Virus record (IMG/VR): IMGVR_UViG_2571042390_000001
Length of the DNA stretch: 64,000 nt
Strand: one strand, 5' to 3'
DNA from: a virus
Lineage: Duplodnaviria; Heunggongvirae; Uroviricota; Caudoviricetes
Shown: piece after piece, positions 6,467 to 49,455 of the stretch
Position numbering within the stretch: position 1 is the first letter of the stretch
Layout: every line of letters starts with the position of its first letter
Position numbers and translations under genes: made by a program
Notes under the pieces: model-generated
Told to the model about the DNA's origin: nothing
The model's input: the letters and a program-made list of their open reading frames with translations, nothing else
The model's database searches: none

Positions 6467-6475
6467 TTTCTAACA
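6467..6475. promoter_or_regulatory. Operator-like motif TTTCTAACA (candidate C1-type repressor site)
   Basis: One of about 15 intergenic copies of the same core; upstream of ORF 6649. Confidence 0.45.
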
Positions 6476-6648: not shown

Positions 6649-7611
6649 GTGAGTATTTTAAATTCAGTTTCAGTAACTTTCAACACTTCTGAGTATAAAA
6701 ACAACACTGAATACCACAAAAAAATCAAAGGTCATCAGTTGAGTTTTTTTGCTCGTCATAGCGGTCTTCTTTCCCCTTCACATAGCGCCATTATTGCCGA
6801 GTTCGCCAACCTGGCAGGGTCTACCGATGAATACATGATCCGTCGCTCATATGCTGATATGTCCGAGATTACAGGACGCAGTATTTCTACTGTGCGCCGG
6901 GCATTTGCTGAAGCGACGAAGTGCGGAATGCTTGTTAAGCAACATCAGGTAGCGAATAACAATGCCCAGGTGTGTAACGTATATCGGTTTACGACACAAT
7001 TTCTCCACTTCATTCATGTAGCAATGGAGATAGGGGGTAAGCAGGGCATCAAATTTGCCAACGCCACAAAACTGGTTAAGCAGTTGATTTCAAAGGTTCG
7101 TTATTTTTTTGAAACTGGGAACCCCCTGTTCAAATTGAACAAGTCCCCCCATGTTCAAAATGAACAGCCAATAGAAAATAAGAGTCACTCTATAGCCAAA
7201 AGAAGAGAAAGATCATGCGCGGTTCAGCCAAAGGCTTCACCTGCAGATAGTTCTCAAACGGATAACGGGGTACTGGATAAAAAACCAGTAATCAGGGAAG
7301 AACATACCAACCACTGCCTGGCGGCGGCAAAAGCGAGAGCTGCAAAGCGTCGTTCAGACGAGGGGCACGCAAAACGGCAGGCTCTGTATCGTACCGCTGA
7401 AAATCTGGCAAAAAAATTTGCATGGATACGTAGTGCCGCTACCGCAGTGAATAAGCCTAAACAATCCAGTGCCCTAGATTTCTCAATGGATTATTCTGGC
7501 TCCCAGGGGTGTGCAACCATTGGTGAAGCCTTTGACCTGATGAAACAGCGTGGCTATCGGTCTGAATTTGACCGTGAGGATTGGTCAATCCCTGCGGGAT
7601 TTAGGGGATGA
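6649..7611 (+). CDS. Putative DNA-binding protein (320 aa)
   Basis: HTH-like segment RSISTVRRAFAEATKCGMLV; operator-like motif upstream. Confidence 0.45.
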   Translation: MSILNSVSVTFNTSEYKNNTEYHKKIKGHQLSFFARHSGLLSPSHSAIIAEFANLAGSTDEYMIRRSYADMSEITGRSISTVRRAFAEATKCGMLVKQHQVANNNAQVCNVYRFTTQFLHFIHVAMEIGGKQGIKFANATKLVKQLISKVRYFFETGNPLFKLNKSPHVQNEQPIENKSHSIAKRRERSCAVQPKASPADSSQTDNGVLDKKPVIREEHTNHCLAAAKARAAKRRSDEGHAKRQALYRTAENLAKKFAWIRSAATAVNKPKQSSALDFSMDYSGSQGCATIGEAFDLMKQRGYRSEFDREDWSIPAGFRG

Positions 7612-7665
7612 CCTGTGTGTCTACAAAACATCCCAATGATCGGAAAATGCTCGGCCGATTATTTA

Positions 7666-7674
7666 TGTTAGAAA
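7666..7674. promoter_or_regulatory. Operator-like motif (TGTTAGAAA, reverse orientation) upstream of immI-like module 1
   Basis: Core motif plus variant TTTCTAAAA at about 7687-7696. Confidence 0.45.
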
Positions 7675-7899
7675 ATTAATTTGCTGTTTCTAAAACGGAA
7701 TGTATGATCTGCATCATCGACTGAAGTCATCCATTGCTGAAATTTTTAGTTGATCTTCCATGTTTTCAGGCTTATATTCATGCCGTCGTAGCAAATTCTG
7801 CGACCGGGTTTGACAGCCTGAATGTTAGTGCGGACAACCGCAGATTTCCGATATTGCGGTATTTTTGTGTCCGTAAACCGCGTTACGCCCGAATTATGG

Positions 7900-8000
7900 T
7901 GGGGCGTGATGGGGAGGCTTCGGCCTGCTGGTTTCACTAACGCCAGTCTGTCAACCCTGTCACGTCCTGCCACCTGTTTGACAGCGGGTGGCAGGTTGTT
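7900..8000 (+). ncRNA. Candidate c4-like antisense regulatory RNA (immI type), copy 1
   Basis: Non-coding region before icd-like gene; hairpin about 7966-7995; segments about 7921-7926 and 7935-7941 complementary to RBS region about 8007-8019. Confidence 0.35.
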
Positions 8001-8024
8001 AAACCTGTTAGTGAGGCCGTAACT

Positions 8025-8249
8025 ATGGTTAATGCCAATCCTTGCTCACGTCCAGAATTCATCTGGCGTTTCCACTCCCTGCAAAAACGCTGCGATCACT
8101 TCGCAATTGCCGCAACCGAAAAAGAAGCCCGTTCTCTGATCCCTGATCAGCATGGTGTTCTTACTGGTCGTTTCTCTACTTCCCCACAACCAAACACTAA
8201 TCCCTGGTATCGCAATATTACCAATCCCGGCATTGCGGAGGCTCACTGA
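8025..8249 (+). CDS. Icd-like small protein (host cell-division inhibitor Icd-like family)
   Basis: EFIWRF motif; stop overlaps start of the Rha/Ant-like gene; paralog at 48299. Confidence 0.55.
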   Translation: MVNANPCSRPEFIWRFHSLQKRCDHFAIAATEKEARSLIPDQHGVLTGRFSTSPQPNTNPWYRNITNPGIAEAH

Positions 8250-8956
8250 TGGGTATCTGCATTCTCGAAAAACTATCAATGACCAGCATTGAGATTGCGG
8301 AGCTGGTGGGAAGCCAACACTCTGACGTTAAACGTAGTATTGAGCGTATGGTTGCTCGAAGCATTATCCGAAAACCGCCAATGGCTGTTTTCGAAAAAAT
8401 CAATAACTTAGGATTGCGTCGTGGCGTTGAGGCTTACGTCTTCGAAGGCGAGCAAGGCAAACGAGACAGCATCATTGTCGTCGCGCAGCTCTCTCCCGAA
8501 TTCACCGCCCGGCTGGTGGACCGCTGGCGCGAACTGGAAGAACAAGTACGCCAGCCGTTGACCGAAATAGAGATGATCGCTGCAATGGCTGCGAATGCAG
8601 TTCAGCAGCAAAAGCTGATTCATGCTGTTGAGTCAAAGGTTAGCCAGGTCGCTGAAACCGTCGAGCAAATAAAGAAAGGCAATATTCCGGAAGGCTACAT
8701 TGGCTACCGCCAGTTGGCGGCGAAATGCGGCCTGACTGAAGCCAAATGCCGAAACCTTGTCAACGCTTACCGGATTCCCACCGATACACATGAGTTTTTG
8801 ACTCCAGAGGGGGTATTGTCGCGTCGTTCCATCGTGGCCTTATCTCCCTTCATGAATGCTTTTAACCGGATGATGTCGGAGGCTGAACACCGAGGAAAAC
8901 GCTGGTATCACCCCAAAATGGGGCAATTCCAGGTGATCGGTTGGGGAGGTGAGTGA
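8249..8956 (+). CDS. Rha-family phage regulatory / antirepressor-like protein
   Basis: N-terminal TSIEIAELVGSQHSDVKRSIERMVA Rha-type signature; occupies the ant position of an immI-like module. Confidence 0.6.
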   Translation: MGICILEKLSMTSIEIAELVGSQHSDVKRSIERMVARSIIRKPPMAVFEKINNLGLRRGVEAYVFEGEQGKRDSIIVVAQLSPEFTARLVDRWRELEEQVRQPLTEIEMIAAMAANAVQQQKLIHAVESKVSQVAETVEQIKKGNIPEGYIGYRQLAAKCGLTEAKCRNLVNAYRIPTDTHEFLTPEGVLSRRSIVALSPFMNAFNRMMSEAEHRGKRWYHPKMGQFQVIGWGGE

Positions 8957-9153
8957 TGGACATCATGCAGGCGGTAAAAAAAATCAGGGAAGGACAGGCT
9001 GAAGTGTGCCGCCGTAAAGCATGGAGTGTTGGTGTATGGGCCTGGCCTGATAATTACTCTACTACCGGATGGTTTTGTATTAATGGACTCCAGATCCGGG
9101 AAGTTGATTTATCGACGGCTGATATAGTCGGTAATGATTGGATCGTGACTTGA
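8953..9153 (+). CDS. Small DUF2829 (Tad2-family)-like protein
   Basis: AVKKIREGQAEVCRRKAW and C-terminal ADIVGNDWIVT signature; 4-nt overlap with Rha gene; same domain is fused to Rha in 48514..49455. Confidence 0.5.
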   Translation: MMDIMQAVKKIREGQAEVCRRKAWSVGVWAWPDNYSTTGWFCINGLQIREVDLSTADIVGNDWIVT

Positions 9154-21092: not shown

Positions 21093-21167
21093 GATGGTGT
21101 AGCTCAGCGGTAGAGCAGTTGGCTGTTAACCAACTGGTCGGTGGTTCGAATCCACCCACCATCGCCA
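21093..21167 (+). tRNA. tRNA-Asn (anticodon GTT)
   Basis: Cloverleaf: acceptor GATGGTG/CACCATC, T-arm GGTGG-TTCGAAT-CCACC, anticodon loop CTGTTAA, 3' CCA. Confidence 0.8.
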
Positions 21168-21172
21168 ATTTA

Positions 21173-21259
21173 GGGGAGTTAGTCCGTAGGGGTAGCGGGG
21201 TAGACTGTAAATCTACTGTCATTGCGACTCGGGTGGTTCGACTCCATCACTCCCCACCA
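21173..21259 (+). tRNA. tRNA-Tyr (anticodon GTA), long variable arm
   Basis: Acceptor GGGGAGT/ACTCCCC, anticodon loop CTGTAAA, type II variable arm, 3' CCA. Confidence 0.7.
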
Positions 21260-21263
21260 AATT

Positions 21264-21339
21264 GCCGGTTTAGCTCAGTTGGTAGAGCAGTCGCTTTGTA
21301 AGCGAATGGTCAGCGGTTCGATCCCGTTAACCGGCACCA
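21264..21339 (+). tRNA. tRNA-Thr (anticodon TGT)
   Basis: Acceptor GCCGGTT/AACCGGC, D-arm TAGCTCAGTTGGTAGAGC, anticodon loop TTTGTAA, 3' CCA. Confidence 0.8.
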
Positions 21340-22309: not shown

Positions 22310-22385
22310 GGCCCTTTAGCTCAGTGGTTAGAGCGGGCGACTCATAATCGCACGGTCACCGGTTCAAGTCCGGTAGGGGCCACCA
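22310..22385 (+). tRNA. tRNA-Ile2-like (anticodon CAT; may read AUA after lysidine modification, or be tRNA-Met)
   Basis: Near-identical in outline to E. coli ileX-type tRNA: GGCCC(T)TTAGCTCAGTGGTTAGAGC ... CTCATAA ... GGTTCAAGTCC ... CCA. Confidence 0.75.
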
Positions 22386-47497: not shown

Positions 47498-48091
47498 TTT
47501 TAAGTTGAATTGAAAAACTCTCCGATGTACATTCACTACCGATTGGCACACCGGTCAACTTTTTGAGACAAACTGTTTAGTTTTTCGTATTATTGCCTCC
47601 GCCATACCTATGGCGGTGCAATATAGGTGGCTGAAAAGCCCCCGTTGACTCACGGTGTTCCAGCCTTTATTGCGCCGCCACCAGACCGTGGAACAGTCGA
47701 TGGCGGCTCCGAAAGCAAGGAGTCACAACACTATGAACAACTACAGTCTTTTCCCATCACTCGTCTTCCACCACTCACGCGATAATCTGCATTCTTTGCT
47801 CGCGCCGGGGGTGTCAAAATGACTGTTCGCTACCTCAACTTTCAAATCAAGAACATTACTGGCGGTTGCTATGACTGGTTTGTCACTCTCGGAAAAGAAG
47901 TGATCACCGGGAAGCTGGATGAAGTGAAAGCTAAAGCAATGGCCTACGCCTGCAAGCAAGTCAGGAAGAAATCCGCCAAAGCATAAAATACTGACTGTTG
48001 CGCCCTGGCATTATCGTGGGGTATATTTCTACGGCACCTTAGAAAAACGGGTGCCGGGATTGGAACCCCGGATAATGTCAAAGGCGACACA

Positions 48092-48113
48092 GACGCCGAA
48101 CGCGTCTTTTTTT
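48092..48113 (+). terminator. Rho-independent terminator
   Basis: gacgc/gcgtc stem followed by T7. Confidence 0.5.
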
Positions 48114-48149
48114 GTGTCATGCCATCGCACAGCCATACTTAGCGTTTAG

Positions 48150-48260
48150 CTCAGAGATCAATGGTAGTGCTGGCTGGGCTGCCGAAAGGCAGGCCGGTTC
48201 CCTTTGACGCCGGTAGTTCCAACCCAGTCAGTGCTACCGCCATTGAGATTGGAACCTCAC
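48150..48260 (+). ncRNA. Candidate c4-like antisense regulatory RNA, copy 2
   Basis: Segments at about 48187-48191 and 48200-48206 complementary to RBS region of icd-like gene 2 (about 48280-48294). Confidence 0.35.
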
Positions 48261-48298
48261 GCGGTAGCTCCTTAACTTAGTCAAAGGAGGCTGCCAAT

Positions 48299-48514
48299 AT
48301 GGCTACTATCCCTACCCCAACTCATTCTGAATTTATCTGGCGTTTCTATTCCTGCCAAAAACACCTGTATATCTGCGTCATGGCTGCTACCGAAGCAGAG
48401 GCGCGCTCATACCTTCCCGAAGAACCCTGCATTTTTGCTGCTCGCTTCACTCTTGATGCGATGGAGATCCTCAATTACTGGAATCTGCCGATGAACTGCG
48501 TGGAGGTGCACTGA
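48299..48514 (+). CDS. Icd-like small protein (paralog of 8025..8249)
   Basis: SEFIWRFYSCQKH motif; stop overlaps start of downstream gene. Confidence 0.55.
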   Translation: MATIPTPTHSEFIWRFYSCQKHLYICVMAATEAEARSYLPEEPCIFAARFTLDAMEILNYWNLPMNCVEVH

Positions 48515-49455
48515 TGAATCTGTCCATCTCTCAAAAAGCGACAATGACCAGTATTGAGATCGCGGAACTGGTGGGAAGTCGTCACTCTGATGTTAAACGC
48601 AGCATCGAAAGACTTGTTGCTAAAGGAGTTATCCAACATACGCCATTGGCTACAGTTGAGAATAATCAATCACTTAGCCCTAATAAATACACAAAAGCCT
48701 ATTTCTTCGAAGGCGAACAAGGCAAGCGCGATAGTATTGTCGTCGTCGCGCAGCTCTCTCCCGAATTTACCGCCCGGCTGGTGGACCGCTGGCGCGAACT
48801 GGAGAATGCCCGGGTACAGTTAAAATCAAAAGCCGAAATCCTGGCTGAAATGGCGCAAATGCATCTTGAGCATGAACGCCGGATCAACGCCGTAAATGCC
48901 CAGGTAGCCGAGGTATCGGCACAAGTGTCCAGGGTCGCTGAAACCGTTGAGCAAATCAAGAAAGGCAATATGCCGGAAGGCTACATTGGCTACCGCCAGC
49001 TGGCGGCGAAATGTGGCCTGACTGAAGCCAAATGCCGTAACCTTGTCAACGCTTACCGGATTCCCACCGATACACATGAGTTTTTGACCCCCGATGGCTT
49101 GCTTGCGCGACGCTCCATTGTGGCCCTTGCCCCCTTCCGGAAAGCCTTTAAGCAGGTGATGTCGGAGGCAGAACCACGCAATAAACGCTGGTATCATCCA
49201 AAGATGGGGATGTTTCAGGCAATCCACCATCCTGTGCCTGAAAGCCCAAAGGATAATCTGTCACTACATACCGCCAGAGAGAAGATCAGGACTGGATACG
49301 CAACAGTGTGTCGTCGTTCTTCCTGGCCTGAAGGTATATGGGTGTGGCCCGAAGGTGGATCACGAAAGCACTGGCGCACCATCCGTGACGGGAAAATCCA
49401 TGCTATTGATTTAGCTCCAGAGGATGTTATTGCTATGGACTGGATTGTTAGTTAA
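48514..49455 (+). CDS. Rha/antirepressor-like protein fused to C-terminal DUF2829 (Tad2-family)-like domain
   Basis: N-terminal TSIEIAELVGSRHSDVKRSIERLVA; C-terminal VCRRSSW ... EDVIAMDWIVS aligns with separate ORF 8953..9153. Confidence 0.6.
   Translation: MNLSISQKATMTSIEIAELVGSRHSDVKRSIERLVAKGVIQHTPLATVENNQSLSPNKYTKAYFFEGEQGKRDSIVVVAQLSPEFTARLVDRWRELENARVQLKSKAEILAEMAQMHLEHERRINAVNAQVAEVSAQVSRVAETVEQIKKGNMPEGYIGYRQLAAKCGLTEAKCRNLVNAYRIPTDTHEFLTPDGLLARRSIVALAPFRKAFKQVMSEAEPRNKRWYHPKMGMFQAIHHPVPESPKDNLSLHTAREKIRTGYATVCRRSSWPEGIWVWPEGGSRKHWRTIRDGKIHAIDLAPEDVIAMDWIVS

Follow-up and report, generated by a model that had tools for sequence, protein, structure and literature searches.

What lies between repL and the icd-like gene of a D6-like phage, and could it govern the genes downstream? 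The question is raised by a stretch of 64,000 nucleotides (nt), here called the window, from IMG/VR virus record IMGVR_UViG_2571042390_000001 (Caudoviricetes). repL ends at position 7611 and the icd-like gene starts at 8025; the interval between them contains no annotated gene in Escherichia phage D6 or in E. coli plasmid p95_MLI121. An earlier interpretation made from the letters alone (the sequence-only reading) had called this interval non-coding and had placed a candidate c4-like antisense RNA at 7900-8027. Our analyses indicate, with a probability of about 0.94, that positions 7898-7974 of the plus strand are the c4 antisense RNA gene of an immI module of the phage P1 type. The identification is based on identity to the P1 RNA, the Rfam score, the presence of the complementary sites a1/b1 and a2/b2 at P1-equivalent positions, a promoter of the P51b type, and an Icd-like open reading frame (ORF) that overlaps an antirepressor gene. 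As far as sequence can tell, every hallmark of the P1/P7 c4 family is present at the locus.

The 77 nt at 7898-7974 (+) are 100% identical to the annotated 77-nt P1 c4 misc_RNA (NC_005856), with no base changed, and the 263 base pairs (bp) at 7783-8045 differ from P1 at two positions, 7808 and 7990. The Rfam C4 family (RF01695) matches 7892-7977 (+) over the full length of its model (positions 1-87) with 68.8 bits, against a gathering score of 45. In the predicted fold of the 77-nt RNA the minimum free energy (MFE) structure is also the centroid structure (-42 kcal/mol, z = -4.55), and it takes the canonical Y shape, in which a long closing stem carries two hairpins, the first of them with a tetraloop. 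The closing stem has 17 bp (7898-7914/7955-7971), the UUCG hairpin occupies 7915-7926, and the second hairpin (7927-7932/7942-7947) has a 9-nt loop that holds the element b' (TCACTAAC, 7934-7941). The element a' (CTGTCAA, 7948-7954) is the whole 7-nt single-stranded junction, and the RNA ends in the 3' tail ACC (7972-7974). The recognition elements a' and b' coincide exactly with unpaired elements of this fold. The U at position -1 and the 3' ACC tail of P1 c4 are also present here, and RNase P is presumed, from the identity to P1 c4, to cut between U7897 and G7898. A cloverleaf scan of 7600-8200 with ARAGORN for transfer RNA (tRNA) and transfer-messenger RNA found no gene, and a tRNA-like gene was rejected on that result.

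The structure is supported by divergent relatives. Among eight c4 homologues, including copies on Duganella, Glaciimonas and Paraburkholderia contigs, 93.5% of the pair cells are standard; all slid registers are only 35-54% paired. Seven pairs are altered on both sides, and only 0-1 of 500 shuffles reach the observed values. The closing stem is thereby supported by compensatory changes. The covariance-model alignment left out the c4 of a second module in the window (discussed below), which MAFFT had misaligned. The candidate RNA of the sequence-only reading is thus borne out by 77 identical nucleotides of 77 and an Rfam C4 score above threshold. The proposed span of 7900-8027 does contain c4, but the gene is 7898-7974, and a start at 7900 clips two bases from it. 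That the gap before icd is non-coding agrees with the annotation of D6 and p95_MLI121, and the ORFs that a program marks there overlap the RNA gene.

Each recognition element has two complementary sites. Upstream of c4, a1 (TTGACAG, 7810-7816) occupies the loop of a hairpin and complements a' exactly, and b1 (GTTAGTG, 7824-7830) likewise complements b' exactly. Downstream, a2 (TTGACAG, 7978-7984) is an exact 7-nt complement of a', and b2 (GTTAGTGA, 8007-8014) is an exact 8-nt complement of b'. All four, all on the plus strand, are identical to those of P1 and stand at P1-equivalent positions; b2 is the site annotated under that name in P1. The icd Shine-Dalgarno (SD) sequence GAGG (8013-8016, +) lies 9 nt before the icd ATG (8025). 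The predicted b'/b2 duplex has 10 bp, including a G-U extension, and an energy of -11.7 kcal/mol; that of a' with a2 has -8.4 kcal/mol. The bipartite complementarity near the GAGG ribosome-binding site (RBS) that the sequence-only reading described is exact, with 8 nt for b'/b2 and 7 nt for a'/a2. Its statement that the target sits exactly on the SD sequence holds in part: b2 overlaps GAGG, but only the first two of the four bases are covered by Watson-Crick pairs, and the other two can be reached by G-U pairs only. The 8-mer GTTAGTGA has one copy in 64 kb (1.09 expected), and the target 7-mers have three to five copies per strand (about 4 expected). The motifs by themselves are not rare, and the evidence therefore lies in their paired placement and covariation.

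The invariant core of c4 was used to scan IMG/VR and GTDB, which yielded 118 loci with the P1 scaffold (L004-L134), after about five of ten genome-contig loci (actinobacterial, Paracoccus and similar) had been excluded as chance 21-mer matches with a fold unlike c4. Twelve combinations occur among them, built from two types of a' and seven of b'. All 118 loci have, at a1 as well as at a2, the exact complement of their own a', and all 118 have that of their own b' core at b1 as well as at b2. Complements of another type were absent throughout, with 0 of 708 comparisons positive at b1 and again at b2, and 0 of 118 at a1 and again at a2. Across 63 distinct relatives, variation in c4 is nearly all confined to 7936-7941 (in b'), 7951-7952 (in a') and one G-U/G-C position of the stem, and the target sites vary in step with a' and b'. 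The window has the P1 type for both elements, which is the commonest on the D6-like backbones sampled (11-12 loci). The same a' and b' types are found on P1-like and D6-like backbones, which suggests that immI specificity is exchanged by recombination.

The relationship extends beyond the P1 scaffold. A covariance model made from divergent copies found 97 further c4 genes in contigs collected with a different scaffold pattern, and the wider set contains 84 unique Y-folding examples, among which a' takes 22 sequences and b' 55. In 79 of the 84, an exact a2 match 7 nt or longer lies 0-6 nt from the c4 3' end; b2, mostly 7-11 nt long, lies about 28-38 nt downstream and abuts the SD sequence and start codon. 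Controls in which loci were swapped gave far shorter target matches. The model in which a' and b' pair with their targets is strongly supported for the c4 family, and the window locus fits it throughout.

Directly behind c4 the plus strand can form a hairpin at 7966-7995 with a perfect 9-bp stem and a 12-nt loop. Its arms are CCTGCCACC (7966-7974) and GGTGGCAGG (7987-7995), and a2 lies in the loop. The sequence-only reading had reported a hairpin with a 9-bp stem at about these positions, which is exact, and had counted it as part of the c4 candidate. The hairpin is real and shares the c4 3' strand, but it is not the body of c4; it presents a2. When a2 is constrained to stay single-stranded, the hairpin has an energy of -22.6 kcal/mol, with z = -5.5 relative to shuffled right arms. 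The 5' arm is made of the nine bases with which the c4 3' strand ends, so that the hairpin competes with, or excludes, the base of the c4 closing stem. Among 65 distinct c4 contexts, at least eight pairs span a2 in 64, and the median z against shuffled right arms is -3.5. Own right arms give -16.2 kcal/mol and right arms swapped in from loci with a different c4 3' strand give -10.1 kcal/mol, with the own arm favored in 64 of the 65 cases (Wilcoxon p = 2e-11). Both differences from P1 strengthen hairpins that present targets, since G7808 closes the a1 hairpin and G7990 perfects the a2 stem. G is rare at the latter position: the 63 distinct relatives have G in two, A in 39 and C in 21. A primary transcript might thus form either the full closing stem that RNase P would recognize or the a2 hairpin, and the rare G7990 would shift the balance. 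A tentative extension, which we consider rather doubtful, is that the a2 hairpin, with the final 9-12 nt of the c4 3' strand as its 5' arm, is a functional and nearly universal component of c4 modules and acts as a cis toggle linking c4 maturation to target access, atop the repression in trans. The same view takes the a'/b' pairs as a combinatorial specificity code, whose types pass between P1-like and D6-like backbones and which lets one genome contain two modules without matching complementarity.

The promoter and leader are also of the P1 type. The sole promoter-like match in 7500-8300 is a sigma-70 promoter at 7750-7778 (+; TTGATC, 17 nt, TATATT), with a predicted transcription start at about 7785. 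Its position, mapped by adding 6264 to the P1 locus coordinate, is that of the P1 promoter P1c4 (formerly P51b). The a1/b1 leader that follows (7785-7866, +) contains three predicted hairpins: one at 7785-7791/7798-7804, the a1 hairpin at 7805-7808/7817-7820, and a conserved terminator-like hairpin at 7837-7842/7855-7860 that is followed by ATTTTTGTGT. Rfam family c4-a1b1 (RF03163) matches 7772-7824 with 55.2 bits against a gathering score of 46.7. The isrK family (RF01394) scores 44.5 bits on the leader at 7785-7866, below its gathering score of 50, so that the leader resembles this family and is not a member of it.

Upstream of the promoter is an operator-like site (7666-7695, +) consisting of TGTTAGAAAATTAATTT (7666-7682) and a partial inverted copy (7687-7695); a weak P51a-like promoter pair, TTTGCTG (7680-7686) and TATGAT (7703-7708), overlaps it. 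Its 9-mer core TGTTAGAAA has 12 exact copies in the window against 0.65 expected (at 6467, 7666, 17568, 18611, 19860, 20016, 28260, 29670, 43979, 46831, 47489 and 59693), with the extended consensus TGTTAGAAAAnTAAnTT. The copy at 6467 (minus strand) stands in front of repL and that at 7666 in front of c4, mirroring Op53 and Op51 of P1. TTAGAAA-N12-TTTCTAA, an inverted repeat, has a single occurrence in the window. The C1 operator consensus of P1 (ATTGCTCTAATAAATTT, Op51) has no match in the whole window with up to three mismatches, and conservation of Op51 was dropped as a proposal. The site at 7666-7695, with its consensus TGTTAGAAAAnTAAnTT, is probably an operator for the phage's own D6-type C1, a role that its repetition and placement suggest.

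The icd-like gene (8025-8249, +) encodes 74 amino acids (aa) and matches NCBIfam NF033153, phage_ICD_like (E = 9.7e-10). Over 61 aa its product shares 59% identity with P1 Icd, and the 3' half of the gene has diverged. The next gene (8249-8956, +) encodes a 235-aa antirepressor-type protein of the Rha/Roi family (Pfam Phage_pRha, E = 5e-7), whose D6 counterpart is annotated 'anti-repressor Ant, similar to HK97 Roi'. The icd stop overlaps the antirepressor start (TGATG), an arrangement that points to translational coupling of icd and ant. The promoter scan of 7500-8300 found no promoter-like site between c4 and ant, and transcription of icd and ant therefore requires read-through.

The surroundings are those of a D6 relative. 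Positions 7600-9000 are 92.7% identical to phage D6 over their full length and 99.8% identical to p95_MLI121, and 7765-8136 are 93% identical to the c4-icd region of P1. D6 and p95_MLI121 both have the order portal, pro, repL, unannotated gap, icd-like gene, Ant (Rha/Roi-like), small ORF, lysozyme-like gene (opposite strand) and darB-like gene, and the ORFs of the window are theirs. From this agreement in ORFs and gene order, the window is assigned to a D6-like, P1-related element with the lifestyle of a plasmid prophage. The c4 RNA genes are unannotated in the D6 record NC_050154 and in plasmid record NZ_CP117014, and the repL-icd interval is empty in both. Elsewhere the window contains four clustered tRNA genes on the plus strand, at 21093-21336 and 22310-22382 (Rfam tRNA, 41.9-75.5 bits).

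The window has a second c4 module at 48034-49455. It consists of an isrK-type leader (48034-48112; Rfam isrK RF01394, 61.3 bits, above the gathering score), a c4 gene (48157-48244; Rfam C4, 77.1 bits), an icd-like gene (icd2, 48299-48514) and an antirepressor gene (ant2, 48514-49455) whose product has 313 aa. Its recognition elements, a' GTTCCAA and b' CCTTTGAC, have their own matching a1, b1, a2 and b2. Cross-module duplexes are predicted at -2.8 to -7.9 kcal/mol and cognate ones at -8.4 to -15.9 kcal/mol; the c4 of module 1 (the module at 7898) pairs with its own targets at -11.7 and -8.4 kcal/mol and with those of module 2 at -2.8 to -4.3 kcal/mol. Given the weakness of the cross-module duplexes, the two modules should act independently. 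The N-terminal parts of the two antirepressors are 67% identical, and a 66-aa ORF behind the module 1 gene (8953-9153) is 40% identical to the C-terminal domain of the module 2 protein (48514-49455). The homology of that ORF to the C-terminal domain indicates that module 2 has the antirepressor fused, whereas in module 1 it is split.

How the locus would work can be proposed by analogy, and the functional statements made here rest on the P1 GenBank annotation and secondary literature. P1 c4 is described as an antisense RNA of 77 bases that arises by processing and acts in trans; its precursor is a substrate of RNase P, and it represses icd/ant translation through a2/b2. The note on b2 in the P1 record reads 'repression of icd ant translation'. 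In the window, the operon would be transcribed rightward from 7750-7778, and probably also from the upstream promoter under control of the operator, to give an RNA in the order a1/b1 leader, c4, a2/b2, icd and antirepressor gene. Because c4 is identical to that of P1, a Y-shaped RNA of 77 nt would be excised, its 5' end generated by RNase P at G7898. Pairing of b' with b2 and of a' with a2 would then block ribosome binding at icd. Occlusion of the icd RBS by b'/b2 is the function given in the P1 record, and its transfer to the window is supported by the covariation of loop and target. Since the ant start overlaps the icd stop, lost icd translation would silence the antirepressor too, and the prophage would stay repressed. 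The a1/b1 copies probably compete for c4, as was first proposed for P1.

Several points weigh against this interpretation. The functional claims for the c4 of the window are all transferred from P1. The antirepressor is of the Rha/Roi type and not P1 Ant1/Ant2, and its action on the C1 of this phage is putative. Transcriptional control may differ from that of P1, because an Op51 of the P1 type is absent. In the MFE fold of the precursor the bottom 3 bp of the c4 stem are opened by a hairpin on the a2 side, shifted in register, whose pairs take in the end of c4's 3' strand, whereas with the P1 allele c4 stays intact in the predicted precursor fold. In this folding model the unusually strong competing a2 hairpin, which owes its strength to G7990, could affect c4 processing.

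The hairpin also bears on other explanations of the locus. If the c4 transcript ended at 7966-7995, by intrinsic termination or attenuation, c4 would be mainly cis-regulatory. Precedent exists, as Weinberg et al. (2010) noted in several c4 genes an overlap between the 3' half of the closing stem P1 and a predicted terminator hairpin's 5' half, and the hairpin here is strong, at -22.6 kcal/mol. What follows it here, however, is TTGTTAAA and not a U-run; only eight of the 65 contexts have five T's in the 8 nt after the hairpin and none has more, a terminator scan of the plus strand gave no match here, and the absence of a downstream promoter-like site for icd and ant makes read-through necessary. 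Lacking a U-run behind the hairpin, the terminator reading was rejected, and we regard it as very improbable. Less credible by far, to the point of being nearly negligible, is that the interval encodes a small protein, either from 7822-8022 (+, 66 aa) or from 7746-7973 (-, 75 aa). Both ORFs are open in almost all of the 63 distinct relatives and an old P1 record (X15639) lists a c4 coding sequence (CDS), but the relatives are too similar for openness to be informative. Variation is limited to two unpaired RNA elements and is mirrored by complementary changes at four sites, two of which the logic of these ORFs does not cover; the RNA structure covaries; and current P1, P7, D6 and PGAP annotations have no CDS here. 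It was on this covariation pattern that a protein-coding reading of the overlapping ORFs was rejected.

The presence of module 2 raises a further possibility, namely that the locus at 7898 is an inert leader or a decaying duplicate immunity module, kept c4-like through recent descent from a P1-like recombination partner, while module 2 (48034-49455) and C1 control lysogeny. Such a history would account for the two c4-icd-ant modules with paralogous antirepressors (67% identical) and for a module 1 antirepressor whose C-terminal domain is a separate ORF, and two differences from P1 in 263 bp could mean recent transfer and not selection. Decay is nevertheless hard to reconcile with a promoter, leader, c4, four targets, icd and ant that are all intact, or with the 104 plasmid records that cover at least 80% of 7600-9000. 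D6-like backbones moreover carry several a'/b' types whose targets always match, a pattern for which continued selection on the pairing is required. We therefore hold this explanation to be very unlikely, marginally more so than termination at the hairpin, and retain a P1-type c4 gene as the reading of 7898-7974.

Leaders of the isrK type are frequent companions of c4. In 13 diverse loci, isrK matches lie directly upstream of 14 of 21 C4 matches. Some viral contigs contain two or three tandem isrK-C4 units, about 656 nt apart and with differing a' and b', as at 9709-11209 of L166 and also in L137, L147, L148 and L203. In the Stx1a-converting phage Stx1_14040 (L255), a CDS annotated 'phage antirepressor Ant' (1274-2296) spans both isrK (1502-1578) and C4 (1603-1690), which are 24 nt apart. 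From the sequence, this CDS is probably over-extended, its real start being the ATG at 1745, which GGAGG precedes. Counted from the isrK start, the A of the conserved AUGG in the c4 of this phage is at +106, and a 'first AUG at +107' has been published for orf45 of Gifsy-1; the agreement suggests that Gifsy-1 orf45 overlaps an RNA of the c4 type.

This plasmid prophage thus carries a complete P1-type immI antisense switch. Because c4/icd regions of D6-like plasmids have already been reported, in a study of one D6-like Salmonella plasmid that described an ImmI-like region with c4, icd and antirepressor and a second c4/icd region, the finding is that of a known element. Nothing in it opens fresh questions on c4 as such. 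Added here are exact coordinates, the specificity assignment, the lack of complementarity from one module to the other and, as modest contributions, the a'/b' repertoire size and the conservation of the a2 hairpin. These details help annotation, as neither D6 nor the closest plasmid has an RNA gene listed at this place in the public records, and they help to predict cross-immunity among the P1-like and D6-like phage-plasmids that are common in E. coli, Salmonella and Shigella.

Comparison with known systems places the locus among several related switches. In Gifsy-1, IsrK, orf45 (STnc1160) and anrP provide a likeness by description, with an RNA of about 80 nt (STnc1160) processed from a read-through transcript after IsrK and an antirepressor that is translationally coupled. 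The Gifsy-1 leader RNA is a terminated, Hfq-binding small RNA that was shown to activate translation of the antirepressor in trans, an activity not known from leaders of the P1 type. The authors of the Gifsy-1 study likened IsrK to seqA of the satellite phage P4 and the downstream STnc1160 to the P4 CI RNA. By analogy the IsrK data support a decoy role for a1/b1 leaders, a role already published in other terms, and no claim of newness is made for a c4-type RNA overlooked in that work, as its authors had already drawn the P4 comparison. The P4 CI RNA, also compared by description, is an antisense RNA processed from the leader of its own operon, with complementary sites (seqA and seqC) upstream and downstream of it. 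It acts, according to the Gifsy-1 paper, by premature termination of transcription and not by RBS occlusion.

The closest likeness is to P1 itself. The P1 c4 gene (RF01695; NC_005856 48343-48419) has the same 77 nt, the same a' and b', and the same a1, b1, a2 and b2. The immI regions also share the position of the P51b-type promoter, the order of leader, c4, targets, icd and antirepressor gene, and the overlap of the icd and ant frames. They differ at two bases, G7808 and G7990 in the window, and in their surroundings: P1 has simABC upstream and kilA-repL downstream, whereas the window has repL upstream within a D6-like genome. In P1, Op51 overlaps P51a, and in the window another operator-like motif occupies the analogous place; P1 has Ant1/Ant2 and the window a 235-aa antirepressor of the Rha/Roi type. 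The c4 of D6 has the scaffold, gene order and target positions of the window but b' CGTAAGT, with ACTTACG at b1/b2, and P7 shares scaffold, gene order and target positions, but its a' is CTGCTAA and its b' CACAATC, each matched by its targets. To judge from these sequences, the immI specificity of the window should differ from that of D6, of P7 and of its own module 2. Since c4 and all four targets are identical to those of P1, it should be shared with P1.

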